From Hyphomonadaceae bacterium BRH_c29 (GTDB taxonomy: Bacteria; Pseudomonadota; Alphaproteobacteria; Caulobacterales; Hyphomonadaceae): a DNA stretch of 64,000 nucleotides. The DNA lies in the NCBI GenBank assembly GCA_000961695.1, contig LADW01000003.1, forward strand, positions 1,224 to 65,223, in the 5' to 3' direction. Below, one piece after another: positions 20,795-61,276 of the stretch (the first letter of the stretch is position 1; each line of letters opens with the position of its first letter). Below the pieces are notes generated by a model, which did no database searches, had not been told where the DNA came from, and worked only from the letters and a program-made list of their open reading frames with translations. A program made the position numbers and the translations under genes.

Positions 20795-20860
20795 GGGAAG
20801 AGCACCTTGTTGAAATGAAACCGATTGTCGCGGGCGCGCATGGTGCGCGGCGCGGCCGTA

Positions 20861-21283
20861 TCAGATCAACAGGCGCTGCTTGAGTGTGAGAGGGGTGACA
20901 GGGGTCTTGGGCGGGCCAGCCGGCGGACCGGTTGTCAGGATGAGGGGGGGAGGCAAATGCCCCGGGTACTGTGCAGCAGTGACGGCAAGAGCCCCTTCCG
21001 GCGCCGGCTGCGGCAGTACAGACATGTCACCGGAAACTTGTCCCTGCATTGCCGGCAGGTTGCAGTCAGGACATCCCGGACAGGCATCTGCGTCTGGCAT
21101 CGACCTATGATCGCTATCCGCGCGAATGGCGCCGTCTGCGTCATCATTGTGGCATGGCGGGGCGTCCATCTCCGCCATTTCGACGACTGGAGCCGCATGC
21201 CCGGTGACACAGCACGCCATGACCGGTTGGGCCACCATAAAGGCGATGGTCATCAGGGTTAGAAGGCGCGAAACCACAAACAT
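20861..21283 (-). CDS. Small exported Cys-rich leader protein (CutF/CruR/DUF2946-like) upstream of cusC
   Basis: Signal-like N-terminus, CPGCPDC, C-terminal TTGPPAGPPKTPVTPLTLKQRLLI. Confidence 0.75.
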   Translation of the reverse strand: MFVVSRLLTLMTIAFMVAQPVMACCVTGHAAPVVEMAEMDAPPCHNDDADGAIRADSDHRSMPDADACPGCPDCNLPAMQGQVSGDMSVLPQPAPEGALAVTAAQYPGHLPPPLILTTGPPAGPPKTPVTPLTLKQRLLI

Positions 21284-21317
21284 CTGGCCTGTCTAACCCG
21301 GAACGACAAATAAATAT

Positions 21318-21334
21318 ATACGATGCGGGGGTAT
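21318..21334. promoter_or_regulatory. CsoR-type operator upstream of the cus operon leader
   Basis: ATACGATGCGGGGGTAT, 35 bp upstream of ATG 21283; same length and ends as the boxes at 24595 and 31925. Confidence 0.55.
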
Positions 21335-21408
21335 CACCAGATTGTGAAGCCAGGCTTTGGACATGGATGCAACCTGTGCTTTGATCTAGGTTCTGGCGGT
21401 TAGGCACT

Positions 21409-21969
21409 CTAGTGAGCACTGCTTTCCTGGTCGCCAGTCACGGACGCGTCCGGCCGCTCTTCGAACGGGGGGACAGGACGCGCGCGGGCCTCGGCTTCAC
21501 TAAGTGCCGGGCCGTTCGCCTCGATATCCTTGATTAGCCACTCCATCTCGCTGATTTCGCGCCGCTGCGCAGCGATGATCCCGTCCGCAAGTTTGCGGAC
21601 ACGGACATCCTCGATTCCCGCGCGCTCGCTGGTCAGAATGGCAATGGAGTGGTGAGGGATCATCGCCATCATGTAGCTGCGATCCCCCACAGTGCTTTGA
21701 CTGCGTACCAGCCACAGCGCCAGTGCGAAAACGACCGCTGCGCCACCGAGGACGGCGAGGTTGACCTTTTTGTCTGGATACATTTTCCACATGAATCCCA
21801 TCATCACGACTGCCATCGCAGCCCCCATGAAGAGAGTCATGTAGACCCTTGTCTCACTCCAGTGGACGTGGTCCCACGCATACGTGTTGAGATACATCAA
21901 AGTGAACATCACGACTGTGGATGTCGCAATCATTGCGGCAAACCGCAGGTAGCTGTTCTTCGACTCCAT
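21409..21969 (-). CDS. DUF305-domain (CopM-like) membrane protein
   Basis: Three TM segments, then YMMAMIPHHSIAILTSE...IIAAQRREISEM. Confidence 0.85.
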   Translation of the reverse strand: MESKNSYLRFAAMIATSTVVMFTLMYLNTYAWDHVHWSETRVYMTLFMGAAMAVVMMGFMWKMYPDKKVNLAVLGGAAVVFALALWLVRSQSTVGDRSYMMAMIPHHSIAILTSERAGIEDVRVRKLADGIIAAQRREISEMEWLIKDIEANGPALSEAEARARPVPPFEERPDASVTGDQESSAH

Positions 21970-58255: not shown

Positions 58256-58264
58256 GGCTATGTC

Positions 58265-59527
58265 CTAGTGATCGTGGCTTGCGCCGGACTTGTCGATGTC
58301 GGCCTTGATAAGGAACGAATTCTCTGTGACGTAGATTTCGCCGGGCCTGAGCCCGCCAAGCACTTCGACATACTCGCCATCACGGCGCCCAAGTTCGAGC
58401 ATCCGGACCTCGTAGGTTTCATCCACCTTGGCATAGACGACCGTGAAATCGCGGAAGCTCTGAAGACCGGTTTCCTTGACAGCGAGCGGCACTTCAGCAG
58501 CGTCCGTCTGGACTTCCGCCATTAGGCGCATCCCCGGTTGTAGACCGGCATCGGCCGGAATCTTGGCGACCGCGATCCGGGTCTGCGAGTTGGCGCCGGT
58601 TACCGGAAGGAACCGCGAAATCGTTGTCTCAACAGAGAAGTCGCCGCCCGCAATTCCGAGGCGGACGGGCTGGCCTGCTTTCACGCGCCCTGCGTCGCGT
58701 GGGAAGACATGCAGATAGGCCTCCAGTTGGTTCAAGTCCGCGATCACGAACAGGGGATCAGTTCCCGCCACGTCGCCTACATTTGTCAGCCGCTCCAGAA
58801 CGGCCCCGCTTATCGGTGCAGCCACCGAATATTCCTGGAGACTGCTGGACGACTCTATTCGGGCAAGTGTCTGGCCCCGGCGCACGGTGTCGCCAACCGT
58901 GATCGAGACGGACTTCACGGCACCTGGATATGTCGCGCCAACTTGAGCGGTAGCTGATGGCGCAAGTGTGGATTCACCGGAGAGCGCCAGGATGTCCTTG
59001 ATCGCTGCGGCGCCTGCGGGTTCCACGGCGACTCCGGTTTCAAGGGCTATTTCGTCCGGGATCGTCGTGCGGCCCTCGAACGAGTCGTAGCGCCAGCTGT
59101 ACGTCTTGCCATCATGGCGAGCCTCCACAACGACTTCGAAAGAGTGAGGCTCGGTGACAACACCGTCTCCCATCAGATAATCCTGACGCGGAGTGAATGC
59201 GAATGTGTCAGTAATATCGCCAAGACGGTTCAGCCGCACCGTGAGGTCAACCTTTGAGGGGTCCAATGGGGCGCCGTCCAGGGTGGGATACACCCGGTAC
59301 TGCGGCGGCACACCCGTTTCGAAGATTGTCATTTCGACAGCGAAGGGTCCCTCCTGAAGCAGGCGCCCGCCATGACTACCTTTCGGATATTCATCGGCGG
59401 CGGCTTCCGTCTCGCCGTGAACCCCGGCATTTGGATTCGAGGGCGAGTTACCGCCGCAAGAAGCCAGAAGGCCAGCTACCAAGAGCGCAGCAATCGCTCG
59501 GGCATTGTTTCGGATAGGCGATTTCAT
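58265..59527 (-). CDS. czcB: CzcB-type membrane fusion protein
   Basis: Lipobox LASC; GSHGGRLL; C-terminal KSGASHDH. Confidence 0.9.
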   Translation of the reverse strand: MKSPIRNNARAIAALLVAGLLASCGGNSPSNPNAGVHGETEAAADEYPKGSHGGRLLQEGPFAVEMTIFETGVPPQYRVYPTLDGAPLDPSKVDLTVRLNRLGDITDTFAFTPRQDYLMGDGVVTEPHSFEVVVEARHDGKTYSWRYDSFEGRTTIPDEIALETGVAVEPAGAAAIKDILALSGESTLAPSATAQVGATYPGAVKSVSITVGDTVRRGQTLARIESSSSLQEYSVAAPISGAVLERLTNVGDVAGTDPLFVIADLNQLEAYLHVFPRDAGRVKAGQPVRLGIAGGDFSVETTISRFLPVTGANSQTRIAVAKIPADAGLQPGMRLMAEVQTDAAEVPLAVKETGLQSFRDFTVVYAKVDETYEVRMLELGRRDGEYVEVLGGLRPGEIYVTENSFLIKADIDKSGASHDH

Positions 59528-60807
59528 TGTTCTGTCTCCTGGCGCGCGCTGGACGGGTCATTCTGACCGGTCAAACGGGCGAGTGCGGCATCGTTGAGGA
59601 CATAAGTGCGGACATGATCGAGGCGCGCTTCGCGCAGCGCGGTCAGCGCGCGCTGAGCATCGAACACGTCGAGATAGGTGAAGGCGCCGCGTGCATAACC
59701 GTCCTCGGCGAGCGCGAGTGCGCGCGTGGCTTCGGGCAGCAAATCCGAGTCGATTGCCTTGATCGCATCGGCGGCGCTCAAGGCGGCGCGCTGGTACACA
59801 AGCGCCTGCCGGATCAGCTGTTGCCGGACGGCCTCGGACTGGAGTTCGATCTGTTTGCGGGCAGCGCTCGCGCGCGCGGCGCCTGCTTCGCTGCGACCCG
59901 CCGAACCGAGTGGTATAGAGGCGCCGCCGGTTACGGCGACATCATCTTCAATGCCGAACTTCCGTACACCAACGGACCAGGTAATGTCCGGAACCGCCTG
60001 AGCCTTTTCAAGTTCGATCTGCGCTGATGCACGAAGTCGTTCTGCTTCCAGCCGGTCGAGTTCAGGCGACTTTATTGCTGAGAAGTCATAGGCGCGTGGT
60101 GAAAGCCGCCGGTCAAGGAACTCCGGATCAAGTTGCGGCGCCTCGGCTGCGTTCCAATAGCTGCCGAGCGCCGCCTTCAGATTCTGTGCGTCCTGATCCT
60201 CTCGCCGGGCATCGGCAATCGCGACCGCGAGATCAGTAGATGCGCGCGCGCCCGCAAGCAGGGGATCGCGCGCCGCTTCCACGCGCCGGTCAACGGCGGA
60301 CTGAAGCGACATAACCGTCTCAACCCGCTCGCAAGCCAGCAAGGCGCGCCGCTCGGCAAGAGCGGCCTCAATGTAGAGCGTCTCAACTTCTGTCAGGATT
60401 TCGATTTGCGCCGCTTGTCGTTCGGTTTCAGCAACATCGACACCGCGGCGGGCAAGCACGGTGCGAGCATCTTGTTTTCCGCCGCGTTCCCAGACCCGTG
60501 AAAATTGGCCTGTGACCTGAAGGTTGTCGATTTCACTCGCCAGTCCGATTCCGGGGAAGTCTTCGATCTCGAGTGAGACAGTATCCGCAGGACGAAGTGC
60601 GGCGATGGCCTGTTCGGTTCGCGCTGCGGCAATGCCTGCATCCGCGACCTCCGGCCGAAGATCGGCGGCAGCAGCGAGTTCTACCGCTTGTGTCAGGGAT
60701 AGGATTGCGCCGGTTTCGGCAGGCCTGCCACACGGACCGGCCCCCTCCTGCGCGAGGGCAGCGGGAGAGACCATCGCCAGCGCGAGGCCCAGAATTTTGA
60801 GAGACAT
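59524..60807 (-). CDS. czcC: CzcC/TolC-type outer membrane efflux protein
   Basis: VWERGGKQDAR, AVPDITWSVGVRKF, YARGAFTYLDV. Confidence 0.88.
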   Translation of the reverse strand: MSLKILGLALAMVSPAALAQEGAGPCGRPAETGAILSLTQAVELAAAADLRPEVADAGIAAARTEQAIAALRPADTVSLEIEDFPGIGLASEIDNLQVTGQFSRVWERGGKQDARTVLARRGVDVAETERQAAQIEILTEVETLYIEAALAERRALLACERVETVMSLQSAVDRRVEAARDPLLAGARASTDLAVAIADARREDQDAQNLKAALGSYWNAAEAPQLDPEFLDRRLSPRAYDFSAIKSPELDRLEAERLRASAQIELEKAQAVPDITWSVGVRKFGIEDDVAVTGGASIPLGSAGRSEAGAARASAARKQIELQSEAVRQQLIRQALVYQRAALSAADAIKAIDSDLLPEATRALALAEDGYARGAFTYLDVFDAQRALTALREARLDHVRTYVLNDAALARLTGQNDPSSARQETEQ

Positions 60808-60874
60808 GAAACAAAGACCTCGTGACCATGAACAATTGACTGGTCTGCATTATGCAAACCAGCGACGCTCAGGG

Positions 60875-61276
60875 TCAGGCGCGGTCAGGGTCCGGTTCTG
60901 GGGGAATAATAGCCGATGGGTAGTGCAGATCGCCGAAGTAAAATTTCTCGGCTGTTAAAGGCCCCGGTGAACTGACGCCTGCGACTTCGAGACAAAGTGC
61001 AATGCCGTGAAGTTCTGCGCCGTGGTCTCCGGCATGCCCGTTAAATGATCCATACTCATCGCCGGAGTCGTGGTCCAATTGCGCTGCCGCAAAGTCATGA
61101 TCATGATGGTGAGAGTGCCCGGTGTCATGATCGGCAACATCAGCGATGGCCGCGTCAGCATGCGCCAGCGAATGCTTCGCCGGAACCAGCGAACCCCACA
61201 TCGAGAAGCCGATGCAAAACAGGACAATCCAAAATTTGCGCACATTACCGGATACCATGAGGGAGTTAAAAAGCAA
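60875..61276 (-). CDS. Small exported His/Asp-rich leader protein upstream of the second czcC
   Basis: Hydrophobic N-terminus, DHDTGHSHHHDHD, GHAGDH, C-terminal IIPPEPDPDRA; alternative start 61258. Confidence 0.72.
   Translation of the reverse strand: MLFNSLMVSGNVRKFWIVLFCIGFSMWGSLVPAKHSLAHADAAIADVADHDTGHSHHHDHDFAAAQLDHDSGDEYGSFNGHAGDHGAELHGIALCLEVAGVSSPGPLTAEKFYFGDLHYPSAIIPPEPDPDRA

Follow-up and report, generated by a model that had tools for sequence, protein, structure and literature searches.

Four candidate leader open reading frames ahead of metal-efflux operons on a Hyphomonadaceae island, compared with CutF, CruR and their relatives

Metal sensing by nascent exported peptides has been approached experimentally in two copper systems only, CutF and CruR. 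Ozturk et al. (2023) catalogued 5,334 CutF-like proteins in 29 clusters, encoded upstream of genes for outer membrane efflux proteins (OEP; CusC/CzcC/SilC), CusA, CusB, CusF, TonB-dependent transporters, PCuAC and HupE/UreJ. The same authors noted His-only clusters, named CopL, SilD, CusD and CzcI, and concluded that some CutF-like proteins may sense Ni or Co and that the modes of action differ (PMC9973294). In the literature from 2023 onward we found no experimental extension of the mechanism beyond copper. Here we describe a stretch of 64,000 nucleotides (nt) from contig LADW01000003.1 of Hyphomonadaceae bacterium BRH_c29, referred to as the window, in which four small open reading frames (ORFs), candidate exported leaders designated O1 to O4, each precede a metal operon:

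20861-21283, minus strand: O1, exported leader ORF of 140 amino acids (aa) with an ATG start, ahead of cusCBA
31469-31891, minus strand: O2, exported leader ORF of 140 aa with an ATG start, ahead of cusF-copA-copB-(copC)-copD
41167-41511, minus strand: O3, exported leader ORF of 114 aa, ahead of czcCBA and a Zn/Cd-type P-ATPase
60875-61276, minus strand: O4, His-only exported leader ORF of 122-133 aa depending on the start chosen, ahead of czcCBA-MFS-HupE/UreJ

A preliminary description of this DNA had placed the four ORFs upstream of same-strand metal operons without stating the strand. Their position was borne out, with spacers to the next same-strand gene of 66 nt for O1, 114 nt for O2, 78 nt for O3 and 67 nt for O4, and the strand is the minus strand; plus-strand readings of the same intervals gave frames with stops or nonsense and were discarded. 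The mechanical ORF of O2 extends to a TTG at 31909, and its homologues begin at the ATG. The start of O4 is ambiguous (TTG 61276, giving 133 aa, ATG 61258 or GTG 61243); its homologues have their initial M-R where GTG 61243 lies, and a start there would give a 122-aa product. In length (140, 140, 114 and 122-133 aa) and in spacer, O1-O4 fall within the operational definition of CutF-like proteins (PMC9973294). The PP dipeptide stands 2 and 9 residues from the end in O3 and 7 from the end in O4, and in O1 and O2 exactly 15 residues follow the last PP, just outside a strict 15-residue window.

Comparison of these sequences leads us to favour, by a small degree, the reading that O1-O4 act in cis as leader ORFs that couple translation, in the manner of CutF and CruR. 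They are genuine conserved genes whose small products are mostly disordered and, as judged from their N-termini, exported. At the N-terminus, inspection shows a basic n-region, a hydrophobic h-region and a site of the A-x-A type (VMA, AHA, AHA). AlphaFold2 predicted an N-terminal signal-peptide helix and a short C-terminal helix with disorder elsewhere (predicted local distance difference test scores of 61 and 54 for two models), and no globular fold for the leader proteins modelled. The first description of the ligand patches and Pro-rich tails holds exactly. O1 has CPGCPDC at residues 68-74 and GPPAGPP at 119-125, together with PVMACC, CH, TGPP and the tail LKQRLLI-stop. O2 has CPPC at residues 72-75 (DCPPC) and RGPPR at 122-126, together with GHAACACA, H(C) and the tail SLVTLKIRLQN-stop. 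HHCGTCH at residues 65-71 and RPPRA at 110-114, within the tail NAPPYELLRPPRA and its stop, characterize O3. O4, which has no Cys, carries HSHHHDHD at residues 54-61 and PPEPDPDR at 125-132 (tail PPEPDPDRA-stop), as well as AHxxAHA, a His-rich patch and HGAELH. The CXXC motif is thus CPGC in O1, CPPC in O2 and CGTC in O3, and the O4 family keeps HGAELH without the Cys pair. The type of ligand follows the cargo, as had been proposed: Cys in O1 and O2 before copper operons, Cys and His in O3 before czcCBA and the Zn-Cd ATPase, and His only in O4 before czcCBA-MFS-HupE.

The putative signal peptides of both copper leaders close with an invariant, Cys-rich segment (QPVMACC at O1 residues 19-25, ~21209-21229, and GHAACACA at O2 residues 20-27, ~31811-31834, both minus strand). 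This segment could act like a lipobox or offer an additional ligand site; CruR, according to a passage in PMC9973294, is predicted to have a lipoprotein-type signal peptide.

Each leader has relatives with the same neighbours, in agreement with the kinship and synteny anticipated in the preliminary description. For O1 we found 20 relatives, almost all of ~140 aa, and in 5/5 loci the leader is followed by the OEP gene and then by the HMBD-CusB gene. Among the 28 relatives of O2, 25 are exactly 140 aa long (26/29 counting O2 itself), and the order in 5/5 loci is a divergent csoR, the leader, ~113 nt, CusF, the multicopper oxidase and CopB. O3 belongs to a narrow family from Hyphomonas, whose loci share its gene order; a scan of genome contigs with N-terminal patterns gave four loci, in Hyphomonas only. 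An index-free HMMER search among 1.84 billion representatives gave 12 relatives of O4, and a subsequent metagenome scan gave 19 further loci. An orthologue of the same CzcC, with 50-94% identity, is present in 15 of the 16 O4-type loci with a readable downstream ORF (56-62% in full-length loci that are not window-like), and the spacer is 67-68 nt in every locus where the downstream ORF aligns with CzcC from residue 1. Megablast of the DNA around O3 and O4 against a plasmid collection gave no match, nor did tblastn of the O1, O3 and O4 proteins against the same collection (O2 was not searched), even at E<=1 for O3 and O4. When the four family profiles were run against 580 open segments of the window, they returned self-matches alone and no further paralogous leader.

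High-GC sequence gives many long open frames on both strands with many Pro and Ala codons, and the O3 hairpin taken alone is not significant, so that the ORFs or their shared features might be thought of as chance products of such DNA. The comparative data, with dozens of relatives or loci per ORF, invariant motifs, synonymous variation and conserved length and neighbours, already refute this, and we regard a chance origin as exceedingly improbable.

In every leader family, few parts of the alignment are as well conserved as the extreme C-terminus. In the O1 family the tail consists of TGPP followed by LKQRLLI-stop, with TxPP invariant, Gly in 20/21 sequences and KQRLLI-stop invariant. In the O2 family it consists of xGPP followed by SLVTLK(V/I)RLQN-stop, with variation at the first two positions of the motif (R/T/I and G/D/S). 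The O3 family ends with APPYELLRPPR(A/V)-stop, in which APPYELLRPPR is invariant. In the O4 family P-x-PDR is invariant, and PPDPDPDR(A/I/V)-stop is present in the 19 further loci, the retrieval pattern for which included PDPDR. The conserved tail residues use 2-4 synonymous codons each, for instance CGC, CGG and AGA for the Arg of PDPDR, and because these codons vary, selection appears to reach beyond the RNA to the peptide itself.

The spacing between ligand motif and tail is likewise fixed. It reads CxxC-46-TGPP-19-end in 20/20 sequences of the O1 family and CxxC-46-xGPP in 28/29 of the O2 family, with 15 residues from xGPP to the end in 29/29, so that CxxC-46-xGPP holds for 48/49 of the O1 and O2 relatives. 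In the O3 family 44 residues separate the second Cys from the end (7/7), with NAPP at 31-32 and RPPR at 38-39 residues after CXXC, and in the O4 family 43 residues separate HxxELH from the end (11/11). Alignment gaps and indels are confined to the region upstream of the ligand motif. In CruR, 45 residues lie between CXXC and RAPP, a spacing that more than 2000 DUF2946 proteins share and that is important for regulation (PMC9426467). One O2-family sequence on a 762-nt contig (P0066) lacks 12 residues inside the CxxC-to-xGPP interval; an error of assembly or decay of the gene may account for this.

The export-signal-like N-termini and the ligand motifs of all four ORFs would also suit ordinary secreted or periplasmic metal-binding proteins acting in their mature form, as chaperones, buffers or CzcI-like dampers of resistance-nodulation-division (RND) pumps, with the stem described below as plain translational coupling that fixes stoichiometry. 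Coupling through a stem between a stop codon and a Shine-Dalgarno (SD) sequence is common, the CzcI protein of Cupriavidus metallidurans is encoded in the same position, 75 nt before czcC, and a mature role is compatible with an additional role in cis. A disordered protein, however, gives no reason for a length-invariant linker of 43-46 residues, and no reason for an extreme C-terminus that is among the most conserved parts while no fold is predicted. Neither the O3 nor the O4 family is significantly similar to CzcI of strain CH34 (hhalign E 0.012, over the CGxCH stretch only, and E 0.094, respectively), and that protein is said to have no Pro motif (PMC9973294). On balance, we consider it unlikely that mature proteins of this kind account for the leaders.

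The affiliation of the leaders was assessed with the Pfam model DUF2946 (PF11162; gathering threshold 23.7 bits) and with CopL_fam (NF033807; cut-off 40 bits). O3 scored 25.5 bits with DUF2946, above the threshold, and a relative of O4 with 43% identity (P0008) passed it with 27.0 bits over profile positions 2-110 of 117. When the relatives of O1, O2 and O4 were scanned singly, DUF2946 was the only family that recurred, with matches at E<=1 in 7/21 sequences for O1, 16/29 for O2 and 5/13 for O4. Owing to the O3 score, the recurring matches in relatives and P0008, O1-O4 are best placed, on profile scores, as peripheral, divergent branches of the DUF2946 group that includes CutF, CruR, CopL and CzcI. 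The suspected kinship with DUF2946, CutF and CruR was in this sense upheld.

The second group of observations concerns the spacers:

20795-20881, minus strand: O1 tail and 66-nt spacer, enclosing a GC-rich hairpin
31355-31490, minus strand: O2 tail and 114-nt spacer, enclosing two inner hairpins
41089-41190, minus strand: O3 tail and 78-nt spacer
60808-60884, minus strand: O4 tail and 67-nt spacer

In minimum-free-energy folds of all four, the last leader codons and the stop pair with the SD region of the next gene and enclose variable inner hairpins. In O1, codons Q-R-L-L-I and the stop (~20861-20881) pair with the cusC SD region AAGGUGCU (~20798-20812); in the consensus of 6 loci the Q-R-L codons AGCGCCU pair with AGGUGCU, and there is one compensatory pair, G-C to A-U, in columns 18/96. 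In O2, CCUG..GAAUUGAUC, comprising codons R-L-Q-N and the stop, pairs with GAUCAAUUC..AGG at the cusF SD; across 6 loci of the family CCUG..GA.UUGAUC faces GAUCAA..C..AGG, with outer arms nearly invariant and a variable interior. In O3, CC.CGGGC.UGA (the Pro-Arg-Ala codons and the stop) pairs with UCAGCCUG.GG at the czcC SD (GAGGA), and in 4 sequences both arms are invariant and the interior has a 10-nt indel. In O4, the last two codons and UGA (60875-60884) pair with the czcC SD GGUCACGAGG (60818-60827) around the inner hairpin CUGGUUUGCAUAAUGCAGACCAG (60840-60862). The consensus of 13 O4 loci pairs CGCGCC-UGA-CC with GGUCAGGAG, with 93% of cells paired as compared with 24-46% for slid partners, and seven pairs change on both sides as compared with 2.5 in shuffles (0/500), mainly in the inner hairpin.

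The z-scores of the folds of leader end and spacer against dinucleotide shuffles were -3.0 for O1, -2.8 for O2, -1.4 for O3 and -3.95 for O4. The claim that each spacer can form a hairpin therefore holds beyond chance for O1, O2 and O4 and does not hold for O3 taken alone. The duplex between tail and SD ranked at 0.27% of the window background in O1 (-22.0 kcal/mol), at 0.03% in O2 (-21.5 kcal/mol), at 16% in O3 and at 10% in O4. Among seven control gene junctions, six ranked at 59-91% and one at 2.7%.

No terminator-like site was present in any of the four spacers, which rules them out as intrinsic terminators or attenuators. A related possibility is that the leaders are transcriptional attenuators of the CruR type, in which the position of the lead ribosome governs Rho-dependent termination in the spacer and not access to the SD. 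O1 and O2 share the CruR geometry of CxxC-(45/46)-RAPP-like motif (PMC9426467), the 114-nt spacer of O2 is both long and structured, and a ribosome arrested 45-60 nt before the stop would expose naked RNA for the loading of Rho. Set against this, O1, O3 and O4 have short spacers (66-78 nt, where cruR has 162 nt), it is specifically the stem between stop codon and SD that is conserved, there are no intrinsic terminators, and no rut-like C-rich, G-poor tract is evident, with no search aimed at rut having been made. We therefore regard Rho-dependent attenuation as quite improbable.

Returning to translational coupling, folds with a ribosome placed on the leader separated the four into at least two geometries. 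In O3 and O4 the stem opened when the ribosome was placed on the terminal Pro motif or on the stop, which is the CutF arrangement. In O1 and O2, a ribosome held at xGPP left the stem closed, because the motif lies 15-19 codons before the stop, and only a ribosome at the last codons opened it; this geometry combines xGPP with a tail that would act as an anti-SD. In these models the ribosome-binding site of the next gene opens only with a ribosome on the 3' end of the leader. The preliminary description had supposed the same logic four times, which does not fit the two geometries.

We propose that, in cis, the leaders would govern translation of the structural gene that opens each efflux operon, and that binding of metal by the nascent, partly exported chain would alter how long, or whether, the ribosome stays at the leader end. 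In O3 (RPPRA-stop) and O4 (PPDPDPDRA-stop) the stem would melt when the ribosome pauses at the end of the leader, and czcC translation would be turned on. In O1 (TGPP) and O2 (RGPP), a RAPP-like arrest would keep the stem closed and the first gene untranslated, and release followed by read-through into the tail (LKQRLLI-stop or LKIRLQN-stop), whose CGC-CUG codons are the anti-SD, would open it. Since arrest leaves the stem closed in O1 and O2, metal is expected to relieve the arrest, with the polarity of CruR, so that the ribosome would run into the anti-SD tail. Alternatively, the invariant tail of O1 and O2 may itself be a termination-stall peptide. In both copper operons this leader layer would lie on top of transcriptional control of the CsoR type.

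Several findings weigh against such a cis-acting role. Beside O3, profile scores are low: O2 reaches 19.4-19.6 bits with DUF2946, O1 and O4 have no match to this profile, and O1, O2 and O4 all stay below the Pfam and NCBIfam thresholds. Pairwise hhalign comparisons among the four families were non-significant except for the tails of O1 and O2, the last 30 residues of which align significantly in identical register (E 2e-5); a single directly alignable family, considered as a candidate explanation, was thereby ruled out, and the earlier grouping of the four as one candidate family is to that extent not supported. The O3 fold (z -1.4) was no better than its shuffles, and its duplex lies at 16% of the background. 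Stem comparisons for O1, O2 and O3 rest on 4-6 loci each, and for O3 covariation is thin because the pattern scan gave only the four Hyphomonas loci. The outer-stem pairs are mostly invariant, as both arms are constrained by coding sequence or SD, and covariation comes mainly from the O4 inner hairpin. Pro codons (CCN) are inherently complementary to an SD of the GGAGG type, so that some pairing between tail and SD is expected. The tail of CutF alone gave no stalling in a SecM-type assay (PMC9973294), CzcI has been reported as a periplasmic protein that quenches CzcCBA for Zn and Co (PMC10127602), and none of the RNA or ribosome-profiling runs searched contained sequence of the locus. Taken together, the earlier observation of four leader ORFs with their motifs is confirmed, and its interpretation is partly supported: the signatures of a cis-acting leader, namely the tail, the fixed distance and the stem, speak for it, and metal-dependent arrest would be a further, inferred step.

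How far the specific sensing roles extend is a more tentative matter, and we regard the following proposals, taken jointly, as rather doubtful. A leader of the O4 type, with His-only ligands, PPDPDPDR-A-stop and the 43-residue ruler, could be an arrest peptide responsive to Zn, Co or Ni, and so could one of the O3 type, with HxCGxCH, APPYELLRPPRA-stop and the 44-residue ruler. O1 and O2 could follow a third logic that combines those of CruR and CutF, in which copper relieves the xGPP arrest and efflux is turned on. If true, nascent-chain sensing of non-copper metals would be seen for the first time in the O3 and O4 types, PDPDR-stop would add a motif to those known for arrest or termination stalling, and in O1 and O2 the relief of arrest, rather than arrest, would turn efflux genes on.

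The preliminary description had further suggested that leaders may explain why no dedicated repressor is seen beside either czc operon. The explanation is at best relevant to these two operons; the copper operons have a CsoR-type repressor and its boxes:

31950-32225, plus strand: gene for a CsoR/RcnR-family repressor of 91 aa (PF02583, 1.5e-28), divergent from O2
31926-31942: CsoR-type operator ATACC-N7-GGTAT in the O2/csoR promoter region
21318-21334: CsoR-type box before O1
24596-24612 and 24620-24636: CsoR-type boxes before the Cu P-ATPase gene (22170-24575)

The window has 4 matches to ATACC-N7-GGTAT as compared with 0.38 expected, and 0/100 shuffles reach 4. In 5/5 O2-family loci csoR is divergent from the leader. 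In 3/5 O1-family loci it shares the strand of the leader and immediately precedes it, and these three loci, like all five of the O2 family, also retain the box. The pattern points to three operons of the island forming one Cu(I)-responsive regulon. Copper leaders beneath a CsoR-type switch would suggest a division of labour between cytoplasmic and envelope sensing. Between the two czc operons lies a histidine kinase/response regulator pair (48681-50730).

The operons that follow the leaders, all on the minus strand, comprise these genes:

After O1: 19577-20794, cusC-like OEP gene; 17766-19580, CusB-like adaptor gene; 14560-17940, CusA/CzcA-family RND pump gene
After O2: 30776-31354, CusF-like; 28855-30759, multicopper oxidase CopA; 28061-28858, CopB; 26826-27656, CopD
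After O3: 39793-41088, CzcC; 38501-39796, CzcB; 35361-38486, CzcA; 33311-35293, P1B-type ATPase, which scores best on Cd/Zn models
After O4: 59524-60807, CzcC; 58265-59527, CzcB; 55079-58255, CzcA; 53704-55047, major facilitator superfamily (MFS) transporter; 52903-53634, HupE/UreJ

The start of the O3-linked czcC differs between annotations. The Joint Genome Institute (JGI) call (L001 3514-4719) starts 90 nt later and gives 401 aa, as compared with the 431-aa ORF used here and in an NCBI metagenome-assembled genome (MAG); with the JGI start the spacer would be 168 nt and not 78 nt. We favour the longer ORF, as judged by the conservation of GAGGA and the ATG in relatives.

The metal operons are cargo of a conjugative element with TrbI, DUF736 and AlpA (61546-63628), and the closest relatives of the window, a metagenome contig that stems from samples of the subsurface or of rock porewater, are Hyphomonas MAGs. 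In one of these (L002 4496-6396) an O3-type leader with czcCBA and the ATPase comes directly after AlpA, a slot that in this window is occupied by the O4-type operon; this looks like modular exchange of cargo. A third RND operon (OEP 47301-48644, membrane fusion protein 46237-47304, RND 43214-46240, MFS 42018-43217) is below the cut-off for heavy-metal RND pumps (non-HME) and has no leader ORF. It adjoins a PepSY protein gene (50779-51621) and the histidine kinase/response regulator pair mentioned above. After HupE/UreJ follows an unannotated protein of ~214 aa with an N-terminal hydrophobic segment, which had no family match; the two genes, together at 52246-53634, recur as a pair in a related locus (L033 1242-2615). 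ORFs 51790-52212, 27679-28263 and 32680-33318, considered as extra components, had no family matches and were rejected, their translations resembling composition artefacts. An ORF of 1480 aa at 6121-10563 on the plus strand lies outside the leader loci.

CutF, encoded in the cutFOG operon of Rhodobacter capsulatus, is a small Sec-exported leader placed directly upstream of a copper-detoxification gene (PMC9973294, PMC8456105), with a Cys ligand motif and, as predicted here, a largely unstructured product, and O1-O4 resemble it in layout; this likeness is judged from published descriptions and not from sequence alignment. CutF ends with GPPPRL-stop (bioRxiv 10.1101/2025.02.05.636593), O3 with RPPRA-stop and O4 with PPEPDPDRA-stop, all with a Pro motif and a basic residue near the stop. 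The stem-loop in the short spacer of cutF shields the SD of cutO (PMC9973294), and an SD-shielding stem is present in all four leaders, weakly in O3. In contrast to CutF, O3 and O4 head operons of the czcCBA type and not a multicopper oxidase gene, and O4 has no Cys. In O1 and O2 the Pro motif lies 15-19 residues before the stop, so that a CutF-style stall would leave the stem closed.

CruR (Bp2923) of Bordetella pertussis, the type member of DUF2946 (PMC9426467), is likewise the first ORF of a metal operon and has an export signal. Its CXXC-RAPP spacing is 45-46 residues, as compared with 46 in O1 and O2 with a variant motif (TGPP or RGPP). RAPP stands 3 residues before the stop in CruR, whereas in O1 and O2 an invariant tail of 15-19 residues comes after xGPP. 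CruR works through Rho termination in a 162-nt spacer that precedes an importer gene, and it is this importer that copper switches off (PMC9426467). Unlike CruR, O1 and O2 have the stem between stop and SD, are followed by efflux genes and score below the Pfam threshold.

CzcI and CzcI2 of C. metallidurans CH34 occupy the same slot as O3 and O4, that of a small exported ORF directly upstream of czcC in a czcCBA operon. CzcI on pMOL30 (L036:15176-15523) has 115 aa and lies 75 nt before czcC, and O3 has 114 aa and lies 78 nt before czcC; their ligand motifs, DCGVCH and HCGTCH, share C-G-x-C-H. The CzcI tail, ending with NARAPDRPQWQRLA and the stop, is without PP, and 49 residues follow its CxxC as compared with 44 in O3. 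CzcI matches DUF2946 weakly (E 0.026), and Ozturk et al. placed it among CutF-like proteins, in cluster 20 (PMC9973294).

CopL of Xanthomonas and Stenotrophomonas (NF033807) and SilD/CusD of C. metallidurans are small Cys-rich ORFs just upstream of copA (multicopper oxidase) or cusC/silC; SilD and CusD were compared with the leaders by description only. CopL, as cited in PMC9973294, is needed in cis for the induction of copA by Cu. O1 matches CopL_fam over nearly the full profile with 17.6 bits, far below the cut-off of 40, and O2, O3 and O4 do not match this profile, though O2 precedes cop genes.

RAPP-like arrest peptides (SecM, ApdA, ApdP and the 'RQH' family; PMC10987492) are exported leaders with a C-proximal (R/Q/H)(A/G)(P/G)(P/G) motif that govern the next gene by means of an SD-shielding structure. 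RGPP belongs to the RAPP-like class, for which stalling has been demonstrated with the third residue of the motif in the P-site, and TGPP was a query motif (PMC10987492). Compared with the wider pattern (R/Q/H)-(A/G/D)-(P/G/S)-(P/G) near the C-terminus, O2 fits with RGPP, TGPP of O1 does not begin with R/Q/H, O3 has NAPP and RPPR, and O4 has none. RAPP-like peptides monitor secretion and precede secA, secDF or yidC, whereas O1-O4 precede genes for OEP, CusF or CzcC and carry metal ligands.

Seen against these systems, and as Ozturk et al. had already catalogued such leaders, O1-O4 are new divergent members of the DUF2946 group, compared with that catalogue through its descriptions; both the mechanism and its extension beyond copper, which the preliminary description had put forward, had already been voiced there (PMC9973294). 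What the present sequence comparison adds is a strict ruler that appears in all four families, an apparently invariant PDPDR-stop tail of the His-only family ahead of czcCBA, a two-part tail common to O1 and O2, and predicted pairing of stop codon and SD in every family. The island brings four divergent leaders side by side, two of the Cys type before copper operons, one of the Cys/His type and one His-only before czc operons, and thus offers defined sequences and precise mutations with which the mechanism of the DUF2946 group, and its reach to metals other than copper, can be tested.

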